Shown here: one piece after another, positions 11,550-40,297 of the stretch | How positions within the stretch are numbered: position 1 is the stretch's first letter | How the letters are laid out: every line of letters begins with the position of its first letter | Assembly: GCA_965207225.1 (NCBI GenBank) | Contig: CBDBLV010000003.1 | Location: 128,001-192,000, forward strand | Length of the DNA: 64,000 nucleotides | Source of the DNA: Dehalococcoidia bacterium | GTDB taxonomy: Bacteria > Chloroflexota > Dehalococcoidia > Plut-88900 | Direction: 5' to 3' | Program-made: the position numbers and the translations under genes | Notes under the pieces: generated by a model | Seen by the model: only the letters and a program-made list of their open reading frames with translations | Told to the model about the DNA's origin: nothing | Databases searched by the model: none

Positions 11550-12968
11550 TCAGGGCTCGAGTCGGGTGTGCCAGACGAACTCATGCTCGGGTAGCAACTC
11601 CGGGTGGAACGCGCTGACTAAGTCTCGCAACAGGATGTCCACGCGGAAGCTCTGCCCGGTCGCGAAGATGTCGGTCCCGCGGGCGAACTGATGGATGGCT
11701 TGCCCCTCGCTCAGCGCCTTAAATGAGGCGTTGAGCGGCTGGTAGGAGAGGGAGCCGGCTACGGTATCACCCAACCGGGTGTCCGCGAAGTAGGTTGTGT
11801 CGATCCAGATGTCGGCGTCCGCGGCCAGATCGATTACTCGTTCCAGCGATAGCGGCGAGTTCAGCGGTACGTCAGTGATCTCGCGCTGCAGGATCGGGAT
11901 TCCACCGGCATCTTCGATCAGCCGGATATCGATCCGGTTGGCTGGCTTAGTCGCCCAGAGGCCCTGCCTGTTGATCGCACCGAAGAGCACGGTCGGCGCC
12001 TCCGTCGCGGAGTCGGCGACCTGTTGTCGGAGGGCCTGGTAGTTCGCAATCACCGGCTCGAGTACCTCGTTCGCCCGTGCTTCAGCGTTGAAGAAGAGCG
12101 ACACGAACTTGATCTCCTCGGCGCTGCCAAGCGGCGGCTCCCAGAAGGAGTTGTAGGCGACGCCGTTGAGGCCCAACTCCCGGGCCTGATCGGTCAGGTC
12201 ATAGCTGAACGCCACGTGAAAGAGCTCCGGCGCAGCCTCCAGGATGGGTTCGAAGCTGTTCGACGCACGCGCGGGGATGGCTAGCCCGTCTTCGAAGCGG
12301 CGGTTGATGTTCGGCAGGTACTCGAGCCCGGCGGCCCGAACGTTCGCACCGAGCACGGTGTCGGAGAGGCCAAGGGTCTCGAGGGCCACGAACCACCCGC
12401 TGCCGGAGGCGGTCCAGAAGGTGCCTGCCGGGATCGGGATGACGTGCGCGCCTGCGAGATCACCGGAGAGGTCAGGTGTTGGCGCACCGCATTGGACAAG
12501 GACGTACGTATCCTGCCTGGCGTTCTGGACGTAGGGGACGGGTTCGATCGTGAGGACCTTGTAGTGCCCTTGGTAGCGCACACTCCATCCCTCGGCGTAG
12601 ATCGCCTCGACCTTGTCCGGGAAGTAGTCAACACCCGGCTGGAAGTCGCTCAAGCAATCCCGGGGATTGCTGGTGATGGGCGGAGCAGTCGGCGTCGCAG
12701 TTGGGACCGCAGTGGGCGGAGTAGCCGGAATCGTGGTTGGGATCGCTGTGGGCGGAGTCGTCGGAATCGTAGTCGGGACCACTGCGGGCGCAGTAGTCGG
12801 CGTCGCAGTTGGGATCGCTGTGGGCGCAGTCGTCGGAATCGCAGTTGGGACCGCTGTGGGCGCAGTAGTCGGCGTCGGCTCTGAGTCACTGCAAGCCACA
12901 GCGATGCACAAGATCGCTAAAGCCAGCAGCCAAATCGCACCTCTGCGGATTGAAAATTCCTTCAGCAT
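11550..12968 (-). CDS. ABC substrate-binding lipoprotein, iron-siderophore/cobalamin (TroA-like) class, with PT-rich linker
   Basis: Lipobox AVAC, PTxxPTxx repeats, DYFPDK...EPPLGSAEEIKFVSLFFNAE; GGAGG RBS before ATG 12968. Confidence 0.85.
   Translation of the reverse strand: MLKEFSIRRGAIWLLALAILCIAVACSDSEPTPTTAPTAVPTAIPTTAPTAIPTATPTTAPAVVPTTIPTTPPTAIPTTIPATPPTAVPTATPTAPPITSNPRDCLSDFQPGVDYFPDKVEAIYAEGWSVRYQGHYKVLTIEPVPYVQNARQDTYVLVQCGAPTPDLSGDLAGAHVIPIPAGTFWTASGSGWFVALETLGLSDTVLGANVRAAGLEYLPNINRRFEDGLAIPARASNSFEPILEAAPELFHVAFSYDLTDQARELGLNGVAYNSFWEPPLGSAEEIKFVSLFFNAEARANEVLEPVIANYQALRQQVADSATEAPTVLFGAINRQGLWATKPANRIDIRLIEDAGGIPILQREITDVPLNSPLSLERVIDLAADADIWIDTTYFADTRLGDTVAGSLSYQPLNASFKALSEGQAIHQFARGTDIFATGQSFRVDILLRDLVSAFHPELLPEHEFVWHTRLEP
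12676..12878. repeat. 24-nt (8-aa PTTAPTAI-type) tandem repeat within the SBP gene
   Basis: About eight degenerate units visible in DNA and protein. Confidence 0.8.
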
Positions 12969-12987
12969 CAAGTCCTCCAAAGTTATC

Positions 12988-13015
12988 GATATTTATTATC
13001 ATTACTCTAATGATA
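12988..13015 (-). promoter_or_regulatory. Fur-box-like operator upstream of the SBP gene
   Basis: Minus strand AGTAATGATAATAAATATC (12988-13006) matches GATAATGATAATCATTATC at 15/19; overlapping palindrome TATCATTA-CTC-TAATGATA. Confidence 0.6.
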
Positions 13016-13342
13016 TTAGCACTTATTGTATTGTATTAGGTATCCAAAGTCCATTGATATAGTGTATCTATTAATGATACTTCCTCTCTTTACAGTTCTT
13101 CGCTTCAATAAATCACAGTTCAGACAAACTCCCCCCCACCCATCCCCCTCCTCCCTAGTACTGAACTAGAGGCCGACGTGGGTGCGATGCGCCCACGTCG
13201 GCCTCTGTTCTTCTCTCCCCCTCTCCCTTAAAGACCCTAAGAGCCTGCCCCGAGTCCCTCGAGAGGGAGAGGGGGACCAAGGGGGTGAGGGTTCCCCTGG
13301 GGCCCCGGGGGGATATTCCCCCTCAAAGCCGCACATTTGCTC

Positions 13343-13371
13343 TTGACACACCTGTCCGACCGTACTATCAT
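13343..13371 (+). promoter_or_regulatory. sigma70-type promoter of composite element copy 1
   Basis: TTGACA-17-TATCAT, nearly identical to 33642-33670. Confidence 0.75.
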
Positions 13372-13560
13372 ATCCTGCGTTCGAACAAATATCTGATAAT
13401 CCAAGGAGGAACCACAACCCCTAGGGAAGCCCCGAGACCCGACCCAGGGGGCTCAACGCCCGGCCCACCCCAAAGGCCCTCGCGCAGGCCCGAGGCCCAA
13501 GCCAGAGACGTTGTCCCCTCACCACCGGGCCCCGTGCCCCTTCCCTACCTTACCCATCCA

Positions 13561-13870
13561 GGCGATGGAAGGTCCACAACATTAAGCGGCACGCTCCTCA
13601 TATAGGACCCTGCCGAAAAACCTCGGGCTATTACGCCCTTGGAAAAATCTCCCCCGTCGTTCCCCTCGGAGATTCCCCTTAACCCAGCGACGGCAGTGAG
13701 AAAACGTGTTCCCCGCCCCTCCGAGTGGGTCGAGCCAAACTGAAAAACTGGTGGTAGAGACGCCCTCTGGCGAGAACTCCTCGCTTGTCTGCCACGTCAC
13801 AACAGAAACACGGGGCTGAACCAGGCTGGCCTCCCGCCCCCTGAAACTGAGTCCCGGACCTTCCATCGCC
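13561..13870 (+). ncRNA. Putative structured RNA cassette, copy 1
   Basis: 15-bp perfect terminal IR GGCGATGGAAGGTCC/GGACCTTCCATCGCC, internal hairpins, core homologous to 39328-39681; no credible ORF. Confidence 0.55.
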
Positions 13871-14070
13871 GACCCAAAACCCAACAAACACAATGCAAAC
13901 CCAGACCCCACATCCGCATAACTCCTTCCTCCTCTCCAGTATTGAACTAGAGGCAGAGGTTGGCGCTGAAGCGCCCACCTCTGCCTCTGTTCTTCTCTCC
14001 CCCTCTCCCTTGAAGGCCCTAAGGGAGAGGGGGATCGAGGGGGAGAGGGTTTCCCTCCGTTTTTCCCTTT

Positions 14071-14130
14071 AGGCGTCATTCAATCAAAACAGCTACGAGT
14101 TCAATCAACGTTCAATCAATGTTCAATCAA
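14071..14130 (+). repeat. TTCAATCAA direct-repeat block (other copies 34547-34626, 38871-38932 minus)
   Basis: AGGCGTCxTTCAATCAAAxCAGCTACGAG(TTCAATCAAxG)n conserved at three loci. Confidence 0.85.
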
Positions 14131-14226
14131 AACTTCACCCCCCACCGATGCCCTTGACACTCGTTTCCCCTGACAATAACCTTGCCCCACACTTACACGC
14201 ATAACGACGCCCAGGAGCAACTAATC

Positions 14227-15435
14227 ATGCCCATGGTCCTTGAAGGTTTAACCGTCATCGAGCTGTCCACCGGTCAGCAGGGGCCCGTGGCCGGCGCCCT
14301 CCTCGCCGACATGGGCGCCGACGTCATCAAGATCGAGGACAAGGACCACGGCGACCCCGGCCGCAGCGTCCGCACCGAGACCCCCGGACAGGAGCCCTTC
14401 CCCCTCTCCTATTACTTCGAGAACAACAACCGCAACAAGCGCGGCGTCGCCATCGACTACTCCGGCGATGCGGGCATCGAAGTCCTTCGCAAGCTCGTCT
14501 CCAACGCCGACATCTTCCTGTCCAACTTCCCCATAGCCACCCTCGCCGAAATGGGCCTCGACTATCCAAGGCTCTCCGCCGCCAACGAAAAGCTCATCTA
14601 CGCCGTCGCCACCGGCATGGGCCCCACCGGCCCCGACCGCGACAAACCCTTCAATGACATCACAGCCCAGCTTTACGGAGGTATTCAGAGCCACGGCAAC
14701 AGCGACGGCCCCGTCCCCTTCTGGGGCGGCATGGCCAACCAGGAGGACGCCATCCTTCTCGCCTTCGGTATCGTCAACGCCCTCATCGCCCGTGAACGCC
14801 ACGGCGTCGGCCAGGAGGTCTACTCGGCGCTCCTGGGCAGCCAGATTAACTGGGCTGCCCTCAACGTTCAGAGCAACATCTTCAACAAGCGGGAGCCCTG
14901 GGGCATGAAGCGGGAGGCCCCCCTCAGCCCCTTCTGGAACTACTACCAGACCAGGGATGACAGGTGGCTGTGCCTCGGCTTCCTGCAGGAGAATCGCGAC
15001 TGGCACACCCTCTGTCAGGTCCTGGAACGTGAAGACCTGGAGTTCGACCCTCGCTTCGACTCCAATCCCAAGCGCACCAAGATTAACAACCAGGTCCTCA
15101 TCCCCATCATGCGGGAGTGCTTCCTCCAGAAGACCCTCGATGAGTGGGTCGAGATACTGGGCAGGCACGACCTCGGCTGGTCCATTCTCAACGACTACGA
15201 AATGCTCACCGAAGACCCCCAGGTAGTCGCCAATGACTATGTTGTAGACTTTGATCATCCCAAGGTTGGGCCCGTCCAGATGGTCGGTATTCCCGTCCGG
15301 CTTAAGAAGACCCCCGGCTCCCTGCGTTCCCCGGCCCCCGAGCTCGGGGAACACACCGACGAAGTCCTTGGCGCAATAGGTGGTTTTGACGACCAGGCCC
15401 TGCAAGACCTGAGAGACCGGGGCGTCATCAACTAG
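14227..15435 (+). CDS. Family III CoA-transferase, Asn at the catalytic Asp position
   Basis: LADMGADVIKIE, NRNKR, GGMANQED, APELGEHT. Confidence 0.92.
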   Translation: MPMVLEGLTVIELSTGQQGPVAGALLADMGADVIKIEDKDHGDPGRSVRTETPGQEPFPLSYYFENNNRNKRGVAIDYSGDAGIEVLRKLVSNADIFLSNFPIATLAEMGLDYPRLSAANEKLIYAVATGMGPTGPDRDKPFNDITAQLYGGIQSHGNSDGPVPFWGGMANQEDAILLAFGIVNALIARERHGVGQEVYSALLGSQINWAALNVQSNIFNKREPWGMKREAPLSPFWNYYQTRDDRWLCLGFLQENRDWHTLCQVLEREDLEFDPRFDSNPKRTKINNQVLIPIMRECFLQKTLDEWVEILGRHDLGWSILNDYEMLTEDPQVVANDYVVDFDHPKVGPVQMVGIPVRLKKTPGSLRSPAPELGEHTDEVLGAIGGFDDQALQDLRDRGVIN

Positions 15436-32096: not shown

Positions 32097-33479
32097 CTAG
32101 CCCCCCAACCTCGCCACCAGATAAGCCATATCCCGATCCCCCTTGATCCGGTTGCAATTCGGGCACAATAGCTGCAGATTGTCCGGGTGGTCCGACCCCC
32201 CACGACTCCTCGGCACCACGTGGTCCACCTCCATGATCCTGAACAGAAACTCCACCTTGCACCCCGCACACCTCCCCTCCTGCCGACCAAACAGCACGTG
32301 CTTCTGCTTCCGATACGGTATCGGCGCATCGATATCCGTCCGACGCGGGATGTCCGTCCGGGCCGTCACCAGCCGTTCATGGAACAGGTCTCCCATGAAC
32401 TCCCGCAGCCGCATGTTCACCAATTCGACAGCCTTCTCTGAGATATCGATCCCCACCCACTTCCTCCCCAGCTTCTCCGCCGCTACGCAAGCCGTCGCAC
32501 ACCCGCAAAACGGGTCCAGCACCACATCCCCCTCATTCGACGATGCTGAGATGATACGCTCCAACAGGGCGAGCGGCTTCTGGGTAGGGTAGCCTGTTCG
32601 CTCTTTTGCGTGGGGTTGGACAGGCCTTATATCTGTCCACTGATCTTGTAGAGGGACTCCGGGCATTTCATCGAGATACCGTTTGTATTGAGGCACAGCA
32701 CCTGGTTTAGTTTGGACTATGCGGCCCTCCTTAATGAGTTGTGCCATCCGTTCTTCACTGTATCGCCAATATCTGGTAACTCCCATTACCTCATATATGG
32801 GGTTGCCCTTTGCGGCCCCACCTGGCCCCGTTAAATCCCCTAACCGATATCTTCTGCCAGTTTCAGGCTCTACGTGACGATAGAAACGGTCTACATAGTC
32901 CTCGTCGTATTCGGTATAGAGTGGGTTCCACGTCCAGTTATTGCCATTAGAGTAGAAGAGCAGCGAGTCGCGTATGCGTCCGTGTTGTCGTCGGCCTTGC
33001 TTGGTGTCACTGTGGGCACTACTCCGTTTCCAAGATATGTCACTCAGGAAGTTCCTCATCCCAAATATCGAATCCATCAACAACTTCAGGTAGTGCCCCG
33101 CTGTAGGGTCGCAGTGCAGGTATATCGACCCCGTACCTTTCAACACCCGGCGCATCTCCAGCAGCCGCACCGCCATCATGCACAGGTAGGACTGCATCCC
33201 CTTTCCGTGCGTCAGCCTCGCCGTCTCTATCACCTTGTACATCGCCGGCTGCTCATCCGCTATCAGCCCCATCCACGCCGTGTCCAGGTCCGACAGCGTC
33301 CACGTGTCCTTGAACGCCGCCCCCGCCGCCCGCGACCCGACCGGCGCAGCATAGTTCCGGTTCGAATTGAACGGCGGATCGAGATATATCAAATCCACCG
33401 ACTCGGAGTTCAACCCCCTCAAAATATCGAGGTTGTCCCCCGTCCAGATCGTCTTGTCCACAAAATTCGCTTCAGCCAT
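32097..33479 (-). CDS. N6/N4 DNA methyltransferase (beta class) fused to C-terminal HNH endonuclease
   Basis: LIYLDPPF, YPTQKP, LDPFCGC; CxxC...DHVVPRSRGG...NLQLLCPNCNRIK. Confidence 0.92.
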   Translation of the reverse strand: MAEANFVDKTIWTGDNLDILRGLNSESVDLIYLDPPFNSNRNYAAPVGSRAAGAAFKDTWTLSDLDTAWMGLIADEQPAMYKVIETARLTHGKGMQSYLCMMAVRLLEMRRVLKGTGSIYLHCDPTAGHYLKLLMDSIFGMRNFLSDISWKRSSAHSDTKQGRRQHGRIRDSLLFYSNGNNWTWNPLYTEYDEDYVDRFYRHVEPETGRRYRLGDLTGPGGAAKGNPIYEVMGVTRYWRYSEERMAQLIKEGRIVQTKPGAVPQYKRYLDEMPGVPLQDQWTDIRPVQPHAKERTGYPTQKPLALLERIISASSNEGDVVLDPFCGCATACVAAEKLGRKWVGIDISEKAVELVNMRLREFMGDLFHERLVTARTDIPRRTDIDAPIPYRKQKHVLFGRQEGRCAGCKVEFLFRIMEVDHVVPRSRGGSDHPDNLQLLCPNCNRIKGDRDMAYLVARLGG

Positions 33480-33641
33480 GCCGTCCAGTTTACTGAAACA
33501 AGGCTATACCCTCAAAGCCCCTACCTCCCATCTTCCCCACCCCCGACCTGGAATCCATCCCTCCCTTCAAGAAATCAAAGTAATCCCTTAATCCCATAAA
33601 TCACAGTTCAGACATTCCCCAAAAAAGCCGCACATTTGCTC

Positions 33642-33670
33642 TTGACACACCTGTCCGATCGTACTATCAT
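33642..33670 (+). promoter_or_regulatory. sigma70-type promoter of composite element copy 2
   Basis: TTGACA-17-TATCAT. Confidence 0.75.
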
Positions 33671-33899
33671 ATCCTGCGTTCGATCGAACACTAACTCACA
33701 TCATCAAAGGAGGAACCAAAAACCCAGGGAAGCCCCGAGACCCGACCGAGGACTCAACGCCCTAGCCCATCCCAAGACCTCTCCCCTCTCTTGCAGGGGC
33801 GACCGGCCAATCGCCCCCCTCGCGAGACAGGCAGGTTGCGGCACAAGCGAACAGCGCCATCTCCTCACCACAGGCCCCGTGCCCCTTCCCTGACACCCA

Positions 33900-34204
33900 G
33901 GCGATGGAAAGACGTTCTGGCCTAAGCTGTTCCCGTTAGGCCTAACCCCGCATTAGCGGGCCCAGGCCTTGCCCCAGGCGCGTTGGTGGCGCGCCAAGTG
34001 GGCCGGCGCCGATATGGCGTCCGGCGGCAGTAACCTTTCGTTCCTGCTCACCACAGGAGCAGGTATGGCCGTGACCCAATTAAACACGGCTGATAGCATT
34101 TCATTCCTTCGGCCCCTGGGCCGGTGCGCCTCCCCTGGGCGCATGTCTAAAATCTGCCCGAATGGGAACAGGGGCACAGCCTCCGGCCAGCGTCTTCCAT
34201 CGCC
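33900..34204 (+). ncRNA. Putative structured RNA cassette, copy 2
   Basis: Long closing stem GGCGATGGAAAGACG..CTGGCC / GGCCAGCGTCTTCCATCGCC plus about seven internal hairpins. Confidence 0.55.
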
Positions 34205-34726
34205 GACCCAGAACCCAGTAGCCAGAACAAAATGAATACCCAACCCCCACAAACCAACAACCCAAAATCCCTCACCACCATTCCCGCTCTTTATATCGTC
34301 ATTCCCGAGGAAAGCCTGCCCCCGAGAAGTCGGGGGGGAATCCATCCCTCCGAAACAATCACCCACAACCCCGCAGTTCACCCCATCCCCTCCCTTCCTT
34401 ATCCGTCATTCCGGCCCCCGAGCCGGAATCCATCCCCGGTGCATGGGGTGAGGGTTCCGCCCTCCCGTTCCTTAAACAATCAAAGCCGTGCCTGAAACTG
34501 CAAAACAATCAAAGACCCGCCACGCGAAATCCCCAGAAATCCCTTCAGGCGTCATTCAATCAAAACAGCTACGAGTTCAATCAATGTTCAATCAAACTCA
34601 ATCATATTCAATCCACCTTCAATCATCTTTCCCGGTGGCAGGTCGGGCCCGTTCCCTCACGTTGACACCCGACACGGCGGAGCGATAGCATAGGCTCCTA
34701 CTCGATCCCCACCCACACCCACGGAG

Positions 34727-35143
34727 GTGGCCCCATTGGCGGATACTAATCGACCCCTGCCCACACCTACCCCCGAGACCAAGCCCTACTGGGACGCCCT
34801 CAGGGAGCACAAGCTCCTCATCCAGCGCTGCAAGGACTGCGACAAGGCCTATTTCTACCCTCGTCCCTTCTGCCCCACCTACCTCTGCAAGGACGTCGAG
34901 TGGTTCGAGGCCAGCGGTAAGGGCACCCTTTACTCCTTCGTCATCAACCACAGGCCGGCCCCTGGCTTCGGCCCCGACCCCTACGTCATCGCCGTCGTCG
35001 AGCTTGAAGAGGGCCCCAGGATGATGACCAACCTGGTAGGCATCGATCCCGACCCCGACAAGATCCACTGCGACATGCCCGTCGTGATCGAATACCTGGA
35101 CGTCACCGACGAGGTGACCCTCCCCCAGTTCCGGCCCGCATGA
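34727..35143 (+). CDS. DUF35 Zn-ribbon/OB-fold protein (thiolase partner)
   Basis: PYWDA, QRCKDC..YPRPFCP, SGKGTLYSF, VELEEGPRM; start may be TTG 34736. Confidence 0.92.
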   Translation: MAPLADTNRPLPTPTPETKPYWDALREHKLLIQRCKDCDKAYFYPRPFCPTYLCKDVEWFEASGKGTLYSFVINHRPAPGFGPDPYVIAVVELEEGPRMMTNLVGIDPDPDKIHCDMPVVIEYLDVTDEVTLPQFRPA

Positions 35144-35170: not shown

Positions 35171-36340
35171 ATGGCCCCGAAAGATTTACGCGGAAAGATC
35201 GCCATAGTCGGAGCTTCAGAGTCCGACGAGATGGGCAAGCTCCCCGATAAGTCCGTCCTCACCCTCCACTCCGAGGCCATCCGCAACGCCCTCGACGATG
35301 CCGGCCTCTCCCCCTCCGATGTCGACGGCCTCTTCGTCGCCGGCGGCTCCACCGAGACCTCCGTCAACGACCTGGTCGAATACCTGGGCATCGTGCCCCG
35401 GTACGTGGACAGCACGATAGTCGGGGGGTGCTCCTTCATCATGCATGTGGAGCACGCCATGCTGGCCCTGTCTGCGGGTGTAATCAACACCGCCGTCATA
35501 AGCCACGGCGAGAGCGGCCGGTCGAGGGTCGGGCTGCCCGGCTTCGCCGATGAGAGCGCAACCCACAACGGCCAGTTCGAAGACCCCTTCGGCACCTTCG
35601 GCCCAACCACCACCTTCTCGATTCCCGTGACCCGGCACATGCACAAGTACGGCACAACCCGGGAGCAGCTGGCCGAGGTGTCGGTGGCGACCCGGAAGTG
35701 GGCGATGATGCACCCCATGGCCCGCATGAAAGACCCCATCACCATCCAGGACGTGATGGAGGCCCGAATGATCTGCTGGCCCTTCACCCTCCTGATGTGC
35801 TGCCTCGTCACCGACGCCGGGGGCTCCATCGTCCTCACTACCGCCGACCGGGCCAAGGACCTGAAGCACAGGCCGGTCTATGTGCTCGGCACCGGCGAGG
35901 CCGTCTCCCACGAGCGGGTAAGCAGCATGAGGGACATGACCACATCCGACTGTGCCCGGAAGTCGGGGCAGGCGGCGTTCGAGATGGCCGGCGTGAAGCA
36001 CTCGGACATCGACGTGGCGGAGCTCTACGACGCCTTCTCCTTCACCCCGATGCTGGCGCTGGAGGACCTGGGGTTTGTCGGGCCTGGGGAGAGCGGGCCC
36101 TTCGTTGAGGGGCAAAGGACCGCGCCCGGCGGCGAGTTTCCGATGAACACCAACGGCGGAGGCTTGTCCTACACGCACTCGGGGATGTACGGGATGTTCA
36201 CGCTGATCGAGCTCACCCGACAGCTCCGCGGCGACCAGGGCGAGCGCCAGGTCAAGGACGCCAAGATCGGCATAGCCCACGGGCCGGGCGGCATGTTCGC
36301 CGCCGCCAGCACCCTCATCGCCGGCAACGAAATCCCGTAA
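35171..36340 (+). CDS. SCP2-like thiolase-family protein
   Basis: AIVGA, GGCS, CCLVTDAGG, ELYDAFS, NTNGGGLSYTH. Confidence 0.92.
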   Translation: MAPKDLRGKIAIVGASESDEMGKLPDKSVLTLHSEAIRNALDDAGLSPSDVDGLFVAGGSTETSVNDLVEYLGIVPRYVDSTIVGGCSFIMHVEHAMLALSAGVINTAVISHGESGRSRVGLPGFADESATHNGQFEDPFGTFGPTTTFSIPVTRHMHKYGTTREQLAEVSVATRKWAMMHPMARMKDPITIQDVMEARMICWPFTLLMCCLVTDAGGSIVLTTADRAKDLKHRPVYVLGTGEAVSHERVSSMRDMTTSDCARKSGQAAFEMAGVKHSDIDVAELYDAFSFTPMLALEDLGFVGPGESGPFVEGQRTAPGGEFPMNTNGGGLSYTHSGMYGMFTLIELTRQLRGDQGERQVKDAKIGIAHGPGGMFAAASTLIAGNEIP

Positions 36341-37708: not shown

Positions 37709-38818
37709 TTAAAGGCCGTATAGCTCCACAGCCGTGTCGCCGAGGACTTTCCAGCGGTCTTCCTGGGAGAGGGGTTCGAGGATGTCGGTGAGAAGCCGGA
37801 CGGGTTCGGCGACGGAGTCGGTGTGGGGGTAGTCGGCGGCCCACATGAACTTGTCTACGCCGATGAAGTCCATGGTCTCGGGGACCATCTCTTCGCTGGG
37901 TTCGAAGGAGATCCAGCACTGGCGCTTGAAGTACTCGGTGGGTTTCATGGACAGCGAGGTCGCGTAGGTGAATATCTCGGTGTACTCGTCCATCCGGTCC
38001 AGCCAGTAGGGGAGCCACCCCGACCCCGCCTCCAGCACCACCAGCCGGAAGTCCGGGAACCTTTCGAAAACCGCTCCCTGGAACAGGGTGGTCAGCCCGA
38101 TAATCACCTCCAGCCCGAGGGTCACAAAGCCCCACCAGGCGATGTTGGGGCTGGTGTCGGGATACATGTCATAGCCGAGGTGCCGGGGGTATCCCATGAC
38201 GTGGAGGGCAAGGGGCATACGGGCCTCCGACGCCCGGGCCCAAAGCAGATCGTAGTAGGGGTCGCCGTAGGGGATGCCATTGATGGGCCGGCCGCTGAGC
38301 ATCCCGCCCCGGGCCCCCAGCCCCGCCGCCCGCTCCAGTTCCGCCGCGCCTTCTTCGACATCGGATGCGACGACGTGGGCCACGGGGACCAGCCTGTCCG
38401 AGTGGGGCCGGCAGAGGTCTGTAATCCAGGTGTTGTAGGCCCGGGCGTGGGCGGCTGCGAGCTTATAGTCCTCGAACTCGGGCTCCCACTGGATGCCGAG
38501 GGTTGGGTAGAGGAGGGTGATGTCTATGCCTTCGTTGTCGAGGAGCTGGACGCGGTCGAGGCCGTTGGCTGCACCAAGGGACGAGGTCACCCGGTCCTCG
38601 AAGGCCTGGCCTCCGGGGAGCCGGGGGCTGCCCATCCAGCCGTTGCGGAGCATGAACTGTCGGGCGGGCTTGCCATCGACGATCATGACTTCGCGGCCGT
38701 TCTCGTCGGTTCCCCAGCGTATGGCCCGGTCCCTGAGCTCGGGCTCCAGGCCCTCATGCCAGATGGACATGGGCTCAAGAACATGGCTATCCGCGTCGAC
38801 GATGGGGTGCTGTTTCAT
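37709..38818 (-). CDS. Amidohydrolase family protein (LigY/ACMSD-like)
   Basis: VDADSHVLE, LYPT, LALH, LEAGSGW, WAADYPH; GGAGG RBS before ATG 38818. Confidence 0.92.
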   Translation of the reverse strand: MKQHPIVDADSHVLEPMSIWHEGLEPELRDRAIRWGTDENGREVMIVDGKPARQFMLRNGWMGSPRLPGGQAFEDRVTSSLGAANGLDRVQLLDNEGIDITLLYPTLGIQWEPEFEDYKLAAAHARAYNTWITDLCRPHSDRLVPVAHVVASDVEEGAAELERAAGLGARGGMLSGRPINGIPYGDPYYDLLWARASEARMPLALHVMGYPRHLGYDMYPDTSPNIAWWGFVTLGLEVIIGLTTLFQGAVFERFPDFRLVVLEAGSGWLPYWLDRMDEYTEIFTYATSLSMKPTEYFKRQCWISFEPSEEMVPETMDFIGVDKFMWAADYPHTDSVAEPVRLLTDILEPLSQEDRWKVLGDTAVELYGL

Positions 38819-39327
38819 GGTCGGGGACCTCCTCCCTAGGGAGGGATTATACATGGGGTGGCTGTGGGGATTTTGATTGAATGTTGATTGAACATTGATT
38901 GAACTCGTAGCTGGTTTGATTGAACGACGCCTAGAGGGGTTTCTGGGGATTTCGCGTGTCACAGGGGGGAGGGCGACCCGCCGGTCGCCCCTACGGAGAG
39001 GGGATACCCCCAGCCCCACAGGGGAACCCTCTCCCCCTTGGTCCCCCTCTCCCTTAGGGCCTTTAAGGGAGAGGGGGAGAGAAAAACAGAGGGAGCCGTT
39101 GGCGCGCCTGCGCCAACGGCTCCCTCTAGTTTCATTACTGGGGAGAGGGAACAGGACACCACCCCAGATTCCTCGCAGGGCATCGGAATGACAGTGTGAG
39201 GGGCGTTGGTTGGTGGTTGCAGCACTGCGCCGTTCCGCTCTTGAGACCCTTCGACTACGCTCAGGGCGAGCGGAACCCCCACCCATAGGTTCCCGATCGG
39301 GGTCGGGAATGACGGGAAGGGGGTGTA

Positions 39328-39681
39328 GGCGATGGAAGGACCATGACCAGGGCGCAGGGGCCGGGGGGCCAAGCTGCGCCAGACCCGCAAGTCGGCAGGG
39401 CGAGAGGGAGTATCCCCTTGCGGCCTGTCCGTATGCGGGAAGCGCTCCATCATTCGGAGGGATGGGAGCGCAGACTCTTTACCGTCTCTGGGTGAATGGG
39501 AATCTCCGAGAGGAGAGACAGCGGAGTAGTCCCGGGGCGCGATGCCCTCGGGGGACCCGACAAAGTCGGGGTAGAGCCCCTCGCACATGGCGGGAGCTAG
39601 ACGCCCTGATGAGGGGGCGCAGCCGCGGGGTAGACCTGGAAGACAGGTGTGCCGCGGAGAGTCGATGGACCTTCCATCGCC
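39328..39681 (-). ncRNA. Putative structured RNA cassette, copy 3
   Basis: Terminal IR GGCGATGGAAGG(T/A)CCAT, core homologous to copy 1, downstream of a minus-strand promoter. Confidence 0.55.
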
Positions 39682-39840
39682 TGGAGGAAAGGGTGAGGGG
39701 AGGAGGCGCGTGTCGTAGGCCGGGCGGTCGCGCAGCGCCCGGGTGCGACGTGAGTTGATCAGGCTGGTGCGGCTCATAAACTCCTTATTCCTTTCCTGTG
39801 TGATGGGCTCCGAGGTACGAGGTCGGTGGCCCTGGGGAGT

Positions 39841-39869
39841 AGTATAGCACGGGGGTTCAGGTAGAGCAA
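39841..39869 (-). promoter_or_regulatory. Promoter of composite element copy 3
   Basis: Minus strand TTGCTC-17-TATACT with extended TG; shares GCACATTTGCTC with copies 1 and 2. Confidence 0.6.
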
Positions 39870-40297
39870 ATGTGCAGGTTTGGGGGGGATGCCCCTCAAC
39901 CCCACAGGGGAGCCCTCACTCCCTTGATCCCCTTCTCCTTTAAGGCCTATAAGGGAGAGGGGGAGGGAGGTAAAGGGCATGAGTGGGCAAATCCTAGATT
40001 CCTCGCGGGGCATCGGAATGACAGTGCAATGCGTGGGTTGGTAGAAGGCAGACGTGACAGGTTGGAGGGATGTGGGCCACCCCTCGCTCATACTTCGAGT
40101 AACCTCAGCATGAGCGGTCCCGCGCCGGGGAGGGCGACCACATAAGTTCATCCCTACAGTGGATTGTGACCCCGGCGGCCCCGCACCTGGGGAAGGGAAT
40201 CACCCACCCCACCACCCCGGGATTCCCGAGTAGTCGGGGATGACGAAGTGCAAAGGATGGATTCCGGGTCGGGAGCGGGATAACAGAGTAGGGAGGG

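Follow-up and report, generated by a model that had tools for sequence, protein, structure and literature searches.

A family of promoter-bearing, stem-closed intergenic units with diverse cassettes in a genus of Dehalococcoidia

Ribosomal RNA operons carry a long helix flanking the structured RNA, at which RNase III releases the 16S and 23S precursors, and the STAB-SD of Bacillus thuringiensis cry3A, a Shine-Dalgarno (SD)-like box in a leader without a start codon, acts as a 5' mRNA stabiliser. Correia repeat enclosed elements (CREE) of Neisseria, about 100-155 bp long, are true MITEs (miniature inverted-repeat transposable elements) with target duplication, inserted at many unrelated sites. 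Putative mobile promoters (PMPs) were reportedly introduced by Matus-Garcia, Nijveen and van Passel in 2012. They are highly similar non-coding sequences, sharing well over 80% identity across more than 50 nt, that carry a promoter upstream of unrelated, non-paralogous genes of one genome, are not tied to a known insertion sequence (IS) and have an unknown means of movement (PMC3575422), and CREE, in extracts from one study (PMC2649163), are inverted-repeat-closed intergenic elements that can supply promoters and whose RNA hairpin is bound or cut by RNase III, altering expression of the adjacent gene. Here we describe how a family of intergenic units is built, how many copies it has, where it occurs and how it is oriented, together with the conservation of its fold, its concerted evolution and its coding status; three of the units (copies 1 to 3) lie in a 64,000-nt stretch of a Dehalococcoidia bacterium (hereafter the window; positions 128,001 to 192,000 of contig CBDBLV010000003.1, assembly GCA_965207225.1). 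Each unit consists of a promoter, a leader, a stem-closed cassette and a tail, and is smaller than the three-copy module of about 1 kb proposed in a sequence-only reading of the window, in which hairpins resembling repetitive extragenic palindromic (REP) elements and TTCAATCAA repeats were also counted as parts.

The units are tentatively viewed as cis-acting, add-on upstream promoters with a long folded 5' leader, forming a large 'mobile promoter' module; judged from their sequence, this has a chance that approaches an even one. Literature searches returned no description of this element family, and the Chloroflexota cluster of a 2026 preprint, considered as a candidate, is a period-8 tandem array rather than the family described here.

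Anatomy and copy number of the units

The three motifs on which the sequence-only reading was built were found where it had placed them, in numbers far above chance. Six copies of the 10-mer GGCGATGGAA were present in the window, forming three inverted pairs (at 13561/13861, 33900/34195 and 39328/39672), compared to 0.23 expected, and none of 100 shuffles reached six; GCACATTTGCTC occurred three times (13331 and 33630 on the forward strand, 39864 on the reverse strand; 0.19 expected), and TTCAATCAA 11 times in three blocks (0.19 expected). The cassette lengths of 305-354 nt given by that reading were also confirmed, at 310, 305 and 354 nt for copies 1, 2 and 3, respectively. These three cassettes represent three different subfamilies, with only the closing stem and its flanks in common.

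The source genome (G000), a 4.03-Mb assembly of five contigs (C1-C5, the window being on C3) with a completeness of 92%, contained 105 copies of the exact GGCGATGGAA 10-mer, including 36 exact inverted pairs 305-553 nt apart. A junction-profile search, which replaced a loose pairing of ends by regular expressions that was too noisy, recovered 48 leader/cassette 5' junctions together with 43 canonical tails, giving 43 junction-tail pairs, many more copies having been anticipated from the three in the window; the remaining five junctions belong to the subfamily of copy 3, with a different 3' flank. For 10 of the 48 cassettes the 3' end was placed wrongly by automatic end-calling; these included the ones at C1:91119, C2:324360, C3:161900, C5:737824, C5:783499 and C5:1229211, and three that ran into REP elements. 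Among the 105 10-mers, 77 were located in junctions and four were 3' ends of the 354-nt class, while the other 24 lacked an extended stem (six in an unrelated six-copy repeat, 18 isolated). The six-copy repeat is an identical 70-nt stretch inside open reading frames (ORFs) of at least 200 aa (C2:8242, C5:162895, C5:1833632, C5:1983186, C5:2023561 and C5:2070161), and is probably part of a multi-copy mobile gene, of the IS or intron ORF type, that holds the 10-mer by chance. Contigs from four DNA runs over the copy 1 region gave short fragments only, broken at repeats.

Whole units measured 0.6-0.9 kb and had a constant order, with a sigma70-like promoter followed by a C-rich leader bearing the SD-like box AAGGAGGAACC, a multi-hairpin cassette and a tail. 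The leader (70-310 nt) ends in ...CCCTTCCC...CCA and optionally contains small hairpin inserts; small CCCCGAG..CGGGG hairpins were among the sequences found inserted there. The cassette, of about 200-550 nt, is closed by a stem of 15-21 bp, and the tail, which extends for about 50 nt after it, is C/A-rich, almost G-free and ends in ...CCCCACAACTGAATA. The outer 10 bp of the closing stem were invariant across all subfamilies, and its flanks (...CCATCCA on the left, GACCC... on the right) were conserved in nearly all copies. Similarity between copies of different cassette classes reached outward on both flanks. The exact AAGGAGGAACC box was present in 24 of the 36 copies, without ATG, GTG or TTG at start distance.

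At least four promoter types precede the leaders. P1 is the type named in the sequence-only reading, P2 and P3 have other -35/-10 contexts, and in P4 the TTGCTC inside GCACATTTGCTC itself serves as the -35 box; a TTGACA-type promoter was present upstream in 25 of the 36 copies, additional types also being visible. The cassettes formed at least ten classes by length and sequence (305-311, 330, 348-354, 367-386, 399-405, 428, 446, 456-467 and 538-553 nt, the 456-467-nt class comprising several unrelated types), with identities of 84-97% within classes and only the closing stem, or the stem and a few islands, shared between them. P1 precedes cassettes of 305, 308-311, 330, 399-405 and 461 nt, and P2 those of 307-310, 459, 461-462 and 538-553 nt. 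The unit is therefore a mosaic, in which a given promoter type may be joined to many cassette classes and vice versa.

Copy 1 begins with a P1 promoter (13331..13371, + strand) in which GCACATTTGCTC is followed by TTGACA, 17 nt and TATCAT, matching 11 of the 12 sigma70 consensus positions; a 60-nt piece of it had 18 near-full copies in the genome (median identity 96.6%). Its C-rich leader (13372..13560, +), common to 17-26 of the 35 other copies, carries AAGGAGGAACC at 13403-13413 with no start codon after it, and ends in ...CCCTTCCC..CCATCCA. The multi-hairpin cassette (13561..13870, +; 310 nt, 15-bp closing stem) belongs to the A subfamily, represented by 14 copies in the source genome with a mean column identity of 94%. 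The C/A-rich, G-poor tail of about 50 nt (13871..13921, +; GACCCAAAACCCAAC...CCCCAC...) ends at C3:141921. Copy 2 is built in the same way, with a P1 promoter (33630..33670, +), a leader (33671..33899, +) with AAGGAGGAACC at 33707-33717, a 305-nt cassette (33900..34204, +) and a tail (34205..34252, +) ending at C3:162252. Its stem is of class II (GGCGATGGAA-A-GACG.../...CGTC-TTCCATCGCC), and its cassette has a single sister copy in the genome (C1:69717-70023, 95.8% identity).

The uniform promoter and leader claimed for all three copies held for copies 1 and 2, whereas copy 3 has another promoter type, a real SD with ATG and an open frame. Its P4 promoter (39841..39875, - strand), read from the sequence, has the -35 box TTGCTC given by GCACATTTGCTC, then 17 nt and TATACT, and its leader (39682..39786, -) carries AAGGAG at 39786-39781 and an ATG at 39777-39775 that opens a reading frame. 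This frame remains open throughout the 354-nt cassette (39328..39681, -), a shortened form, specific to the source genome, of a type of about 460 nt.

Fold, coding status and concerted evolution of the cassettes

Compared to dinucleotide shuffles, the cassettes of the window were predicted to fold with minimum free energies of -120 kcal/mol for copy 1 (z = -5.64; antisense strand, z = -4.18), -160.7 kcal/mol for copy 2 (z = -6.08) and -183.9 kcal/mol for copy 3 (z = -8.27). Covariation was evaluated for the A class on a MAFFT alignment of 50 sequences from eight genomes, with an RNAalifold consensus of 71 pairs. Standard pairs made up 99.0% of pair cells, double-change cells numbered 31 compared to 4.1 in shuffles (0/500 reached 31), and the covariation score was 0.073 compared to 0.061 in shuffles (0/500), with slid partners giving 0.006-0.033. 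Support from covariation in this well-conserved class is real but modest, and compensatory changes are understated, as MAFFT mis-registers at least one hairpin (columns 32-51 of A3). The preference of G-U pairs for the promoter strand noticed in the sequence-only reading was recovered, G.U variants occurring at 28 pairs and A.C variants at 14 (p = 0.044 by pairs), or in 196 and 25 cells, respectively, cells not being independent. Three of the inner five stem pairs distinguish the two stem classes, and all of these differences are compensated (GGTCC/GGACC and AGACG/CGTCT). The outer ten pairs never vary, which points to a role in sequence recognition or as a recombination boundary. In a fold of the full copy 1 transcript, the SD-like box paired with a CU-rich run at 13926-13935; this pairing was dropped as a general feature because the run is outside the conserved tail.

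No Rfam family reached the gathering threshold in the 64-kb window or in 14 loci of other subfamilies, and relaxing the search to E values up to 5 on 13000-14250 returned microRNA-type noise on REP hairpins only. The earlier proposal of an unannotated structured-RNA family is upheld as regards multiple copies, consensus promoter, stable stem-closed fold and absence of an Rfam match, but covariation supports it only modestly. By contrast, the suggested likeness to retron msr-msd RNAs or guide-RNA scaffolds, which lies in the terminal inverted repeat around a multi-hairpin body, fared poorly. Although the genome encodes four reverse transcriptase (RT) ORFs (C2:158087, C5:1548409, C5:1553608 and C5:1671488), none is at an element locus, in line with the earlier remark that no transposase or RT is adjacent, and no Y1 or TnpB domain was detected in the genome. 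No retron or omega-RNA family was matched in Rfam, and the existence of some 48 copies whose cores differ is at odds with a single RT. A retron or guide-RNA nature is extremely unlikely. The RT ORFs at C2:158087-158773 and C5:1548409-1549095 (586 aa) have identical scores, the two others measuring about 641-652 aa; they are probably group II intron or other retroelement genes.

Copies 1 and 2 are non-coding. Stops interrupted all frames in each of the A-class copies, as was the case for most other classes. A conserved coding signal, which the sequence-only reading had named as an observation that would count against it, was found in part, in the subfamily of copy 3. In this P4 branch, AAGGAG and ATG were kept in 16 of 17 copies from five genomes, and the frame from the ATG was stop-free to the end of the cassette in 16 of 16, compared to 2-5 and 0-3 stops in the other two frames. 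Variable sites were distributed over the three codon positions as 11/11/20 in the first 30 codons, a codon-like pattern, and as 39/31/32 within the cassette, with no codon pattern. Moreover, the first 45 or so cassette codons were read in different frames among P4 copies, and the frames ended at scattered places, after 207 to more than 500 codons.

These features bear on the possibility that the units are genes, or decaying copies of a gene, for a small protein, the cassette being or having been coding. The conserved start, the open frame and the third-position variability of the P4 branch would agree with it, as would the fact that gene callers predict ORFs homologous to the copy 3 frame: ten database homologues of 197-249 aa, with no domain and no name. 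Against it, A-type copies have stops in all six frames, the SD-like box of copies 1 and 2 is not followed by a start codon, and the P4 cassettes lack both a codon pattern and a common frame or end. The 55 translated frames of 13 subfamily representatives had no Pfam match (best E = 0.079, DUF2141) and no PHROG match, and a search of the source genome's own DNA for a coding source of the cassettes gave only short matches of 74, 97 and 32 nt, three cassettes that ran into REP elements (C4:634763, C5:1120164 and C5:1357111) having been left out. A cassette derived from a phage terminase was also considered but found no support, as the same 55 frames of 13 representatives showed no terminase homology in Pfam or PHROGs and no phage DNA was matched. 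Overall, a protein-gene origin appears very unlikely.

With the codon pattern limited to the first 30 codons and the cassette merely stop-free, the P4 branch is better explained by passage of ribosomes than by a protein product. It can be read as encoding a conserved short N-terminal peptide, after which selection would act only against stops. Because the RNA is C-rich and Rho-prone, the open frame fits selection for ribosome passage, and Rho is encoded in the source genome. With its frame kept open but the protein not conserved, this branch would allow selection for translation as such to be tested in nature, for example as a shield of C-rich RNA from Rho. In practice, the units cause spurious ORF calls, ten of which are already in public protein sets.

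By DNA search, the family was found in all eight other genomes of the same genus and in none of 32 genomes outside it, comprising three from other genera of the family and 29 from other families of the class. At the site orthologous to that of copy 1, the cassette class of copy 1 was found again in G005, whereas the elements of G007 and G001 carried another cassette and the closest relative, G008 (flanks 95-97% identical), had no element. The G008 site consists of one chimeric REP, whose left half resembles the left REP of the source genome and whose right half resembles the right one, a signature of deletion by REP-REP recombination rather than a pre-insertion site. Among 15 element loci taken from G001, the downstream gene had an ortholog in the source genome for 14, six of which also hold an element there, though in every case the cassette lengths of the two genomes differ. 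The other eight are element-free, and at one of them the -35/-10 of the gene itself was conserved in both genomes.

For 35 of the 50 A-class cassettes, the nearest neighbour was in the same genome. Their mean identity was 0.93 within the source genome compared to 0.78 to G001 (none above 0.81), and the positional ortholog G005_L005 was closest to a G005 paralog. As most nearest neighbours lie within the same genome, the family evolves in concert inside each genome; copies could be converted, or replaced time and again, by way of the leader and tail that they share.

The earlier suggestion of a non-autonomous mobile element has to be weighed against this history. The units could be selfish, MITE-like DNA, with the GGCGATGGAA...TTCCATCGCC ends as terminal inverted repeats for a transposase encoded elsewhere and the promoter and fold as incidental features. 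Inverted repeats of 15-21 bp with an invariant outer 10 bp, common to otherwise unrelated subfamilies, would suit this explanation, as would the many copies with 92-97% identity and the variable presence between relatives, and paired ends would co-vary too if one transposase had to bind both. However, cassettes were never seen outside the leader/tail frame, which argues against a free MITE: among 37 leader-end matches in the genome, a cassette followed within 7-15 nt in 34 and unrelated sequence in the other three, with no empty leader. There was no target-site duplication, the stem flanks being conserved rather than duplicated, loci were partly conserved between species, the single empty site studied resulted from a REP-REP deletion, and no pair of the same ends was found 1-3 kb apart in the genome. 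No Y1 or TnpB TNB domain was detected in the 92% complete genome, the DDE, IS110 and serine/tyrosine recombinase families not having been searched. In addition, a strand-specific bias of G.U over A.C is not predicted by constraint at the DNA level. A MITE-like nature is accordingly considered quite unlikely.

Placement beside genes and companion repeats

Based on crude gene calls, the downstream gene was co-oriented with the unit in 29 of the 36 copies, compared to 17 of 36 for the upstream gene; one of the seven misses was a false call, which brings co-orientation to at least 30 of 36. For 29 of the 43 tails, an ORF of 120 aa or more in the same orientation started within 300 nt, and a terminator-like hairpin lay between in only four of these 29 cases. 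In the window, the three downstream genes are all co-oriented and unrelated: a CoA-transferase family III gene after copy 1 (14227..15435, +; PF02515, E = 1.2e-89), a gene for a ChsH2-like OB-fold/zinc-ribbon protein after copy 2 (34727..35143, +), itself followed by a thiolase-like gene (35171-36340), and an Amidohydro_2 gene after copy 3 (37712..38818, -; PF04909, E = 7.3e-29).

Given the strong co-orientation, the rarity of terminators near genes and the open frame of the P4 branch, an action in cis on the next gene is preferred here. From these sequence features we infer that the units would be transcribed, read through into the gene and processed, with an effect on its expression. A strong sigma70-type promoter, of which at least four types appear interchangeable, would start transcription of the unit. 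The predicted transcript would comprise the C-rich leader with its SD-like box, the stem-closed multi-hairpin domain, drawn from at least ten seemingly interchangeable subfamilies, and the C/A-rich tail, and transcription would read on into the co-oriented next gene, usually without an intrinsic terminator between. The closing stem is a plausible processing site for a double-strand RNase of the RNase III type. In the P4 branch, to which copy 3 belongs, ribosomes would probably be meant to read through the cassette after the conserved short peptide start. Units may be spread or homogenised by recombination or gene conversion through the conserved leader and tail, and may be lost through recombination between flanking REP repeats.

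Several observations weigh against an action in cis. The orientation counts rest on crude ORF calls, and the gene was farther off in 14 of the 43 cases, with terminator-like REP hairpins between in nine of these 14, among them the three copies of the window. Whether or not an element is present, host genes retain a promoter of their own, so that an added promoter is not obviously needed. The C-rich, G-poor tail and leader resemble Rho loading sites, which would favour termination before the gene, that is, a separate RNA. As for the fold, only four A-class pairs showed double changes, a count reached by 14 of 500 shuffles, and the invariant outer 10 bp of the stem would be equally in keeping with an RNA helix and with a site for a protein or for recombination.

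Many of the same features are expected if the units are stand-alone genes for large structured trans-acting RNAs, ended by Rho at the tail or by REP hairpins, with a cassette perhaps cut out at the stem and a partner protein encoded elsewhere; siting beside genes would then be a by-product of tolerated insertion sites. Each unit has its own strong promoter and a stable, conserved fold with a strand-specific G.U bias, and the invariant outer stem is as expected of a site of protein recognition or processing. In view of the C-rich, G-poor tail in a genome that encodes Rho, the promoters retained by host genes and the terminator-like REP hairpins after the window copies, trans-acting RNA genes remain a serious rival, possible though rather unlikely. 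About 48 paralogs with at least ten unrelated cores would be unusual if they served one trans function, no protein gene recurred as a conserved neighbour, and the co-orientation of at least 30 of 36 copies, with no terminator in 25 of the 29 close cases, fits a cis role better; a pure RNA gene would also leave the P4 open frame unexplained.

A more far-reaching version, judged unlikely, is that the units form an undescribed class of multi-copy RNA genes, in which about 50 precursors per genome would release interchangeable folded RNAs from the invariant stem, acting through a protein that binds the GGCGATGGAA/TTCCATCGCC helix. In this version, the RNAs would be swapped between loci by gene conversion and one branch would in addition need ribosome read-through. 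If correct, this would mean a new RNA-based regulatory or defence layer, beyond promoter hitch-hiking.

Returning to the preferred action in cis, transcription as predicted would mean that about 1% of the genome (48 units of 0.6-0.9 kb) is devoted to a genus-specific family, and that a strong promoter and a large folded RNA are placed before housekeeping and catabolic genes alike, with parts exchanged between loci. Promoter reuse would here take an unusually large and modular form, and many new structured RNAs would be available from a lineage about which little is known.

The REP-like hairpins and TTCAATCAA blocks are independent repeat families and not parts of the unit. The order of promoter, leader and cassette in the proposed 1-kb module is shared, but in 21 of the 36 copies the tail runs directly into unique DNA and the gene start, and a TTCAATCAA block was present within 330 nt in only about five of 36. 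The larger module was perceived because all three window copies carry both extra repeats. Near copy 1, a REP-like element (13936..14060, +) comprises a GC hairpin with a T-rich run, followed by a hairpin of CCCTCTCCC/GGGAGAGGG; another copy is found at 13150-13325, in which 13167-13207 scored terminator-like, and a further one at 38990-39135. REP-like elements, of about 125-175 nt, had 85 near-full copies and about 195-250 matches in the genome, and those in the window were oriented in the same way as the units. The RAYT (Y1) transposase was absent from the genome search (PF01797, no match; completeness 92%).

The TTCAATCAA block of copy 1 (14061..14135, +) consists of four repeats spaced by 11 or 21 nt, directly upstream of the gene's own promoter, and other blocks are found in the window at 34540-34630 and 38873-38960, and in G000 at C4:~291980-292030. 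The family counts 38 near-full copies and 150 exact 9-mers genome-wide. With blocks just upstream of the next gene's -35 and a spacing of one or two helical turns (11/21 nt), a TTCAATCAA block looks like an array of transcription factor binding sites, judging by its layout. At one G000 locus, such a block occupies the slot where G001 has an element. Together, the units and the REP and TTCAATCAA families account for most long 'empty' intergenic regions of these genomes.

Other small repeats and genes were observed in the same regions. Small hairpin repeats of the form GTCATTCC...GGAATC (e.g. GTCATTCCGATGCCCCGCGAGGAATC) were scattered at 39990-40030, 39175-39215, 34290-34345 and many genome sites. 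A semi-conserved, palindromic GAGTACACC / GGTGTACACC motif was located just upstream of the -35 of the downstream gene in several copies (C1:91631, C4:403834, C4:509036, C3:345656 and C5:68250), and could represent an operator, or else mark where the element truly ends on its 3' side. Divergent from copy 2, an ORF of 460 aa (32097-33479, -) encodes a fused N6/N4 DNA methylase and HNH endonuclease. Near copy 1, an ORF of 476 aa (11550-12980, -) has a signal-like start followed by a long Pro/Thr/Ala-rich repeat and no Pfam match; the stretch upstream of it (12980-13100) is AT-rich and low in GC, in a genome with 61% GC.

Comparison with known systems

Large bacterial RNAs such as OLE, GOLLD, ROOL, HEARO/omega RNA and raiA resemble the units in size (300-550 nt), in a complex multi-stem fold and in having no known function. 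The units differ from them in the absence of an Rfam match, in their approximately 48 paralogs with unrelated cores, in their confinement to one genus and in the lack of an associated protein gene. As a feature of the sequence, the AAGGAGGAACC box in a leader without a start codon, in 24 of 36 copies, would recall the STAB-SD; unlike the latter, it precedes a large folded domain, at a distance of 70-310 nt, and is hundreds of nt away from the gene.

By analogy, the succession of promoter, leader, long helix around a structured RNA, and trailer may be likened to the processing stems of rRNA operons, with which the units have no sequence or Rfam relation, the enclosed RNAs being small and hypervariable. 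Processing at the stem, as in rRNA or Correia elements, would be a prediction from this analogy. As far as the extracts cited above describe them, CREE are likewise inverted-repeat-closed intergenic elements that can supply a promoter. Unlike CREE, the units have a stem-closed part of 200-550 nt, are confined to the leader/tail frame without duplication, and carry their promoter outside the stem, 150-380 nt upstream of it.

Like PMPs, the units hold a predicted promoter upstream of unrelated genes and are not tied to a known IS. PMPs are recognised by an identity of 80% or more, across 50 nt or more, between sequences preceding non-paralogous genes, which the 18 copies of the 60-nt promoter piece exceed with a median identity of 96.6%. 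They differ from PMPs, which measure about 100 nt, in their size of 0.6-0.9 kb, their large folded RNA domain and their interchangeable mosaics of promoter and cassette, and they do not replace the promoter of the gene itself but are situated upstream of it. Overall, the nearest described concept is that of PMPs and the nearest described elements are intergenic repeats of the Correia, ERIC or REPIN type, from which the family is set apart by its size, its promoter-by-cassette modularity, the conservation of a large fold and the fixed frame to which it is confined.

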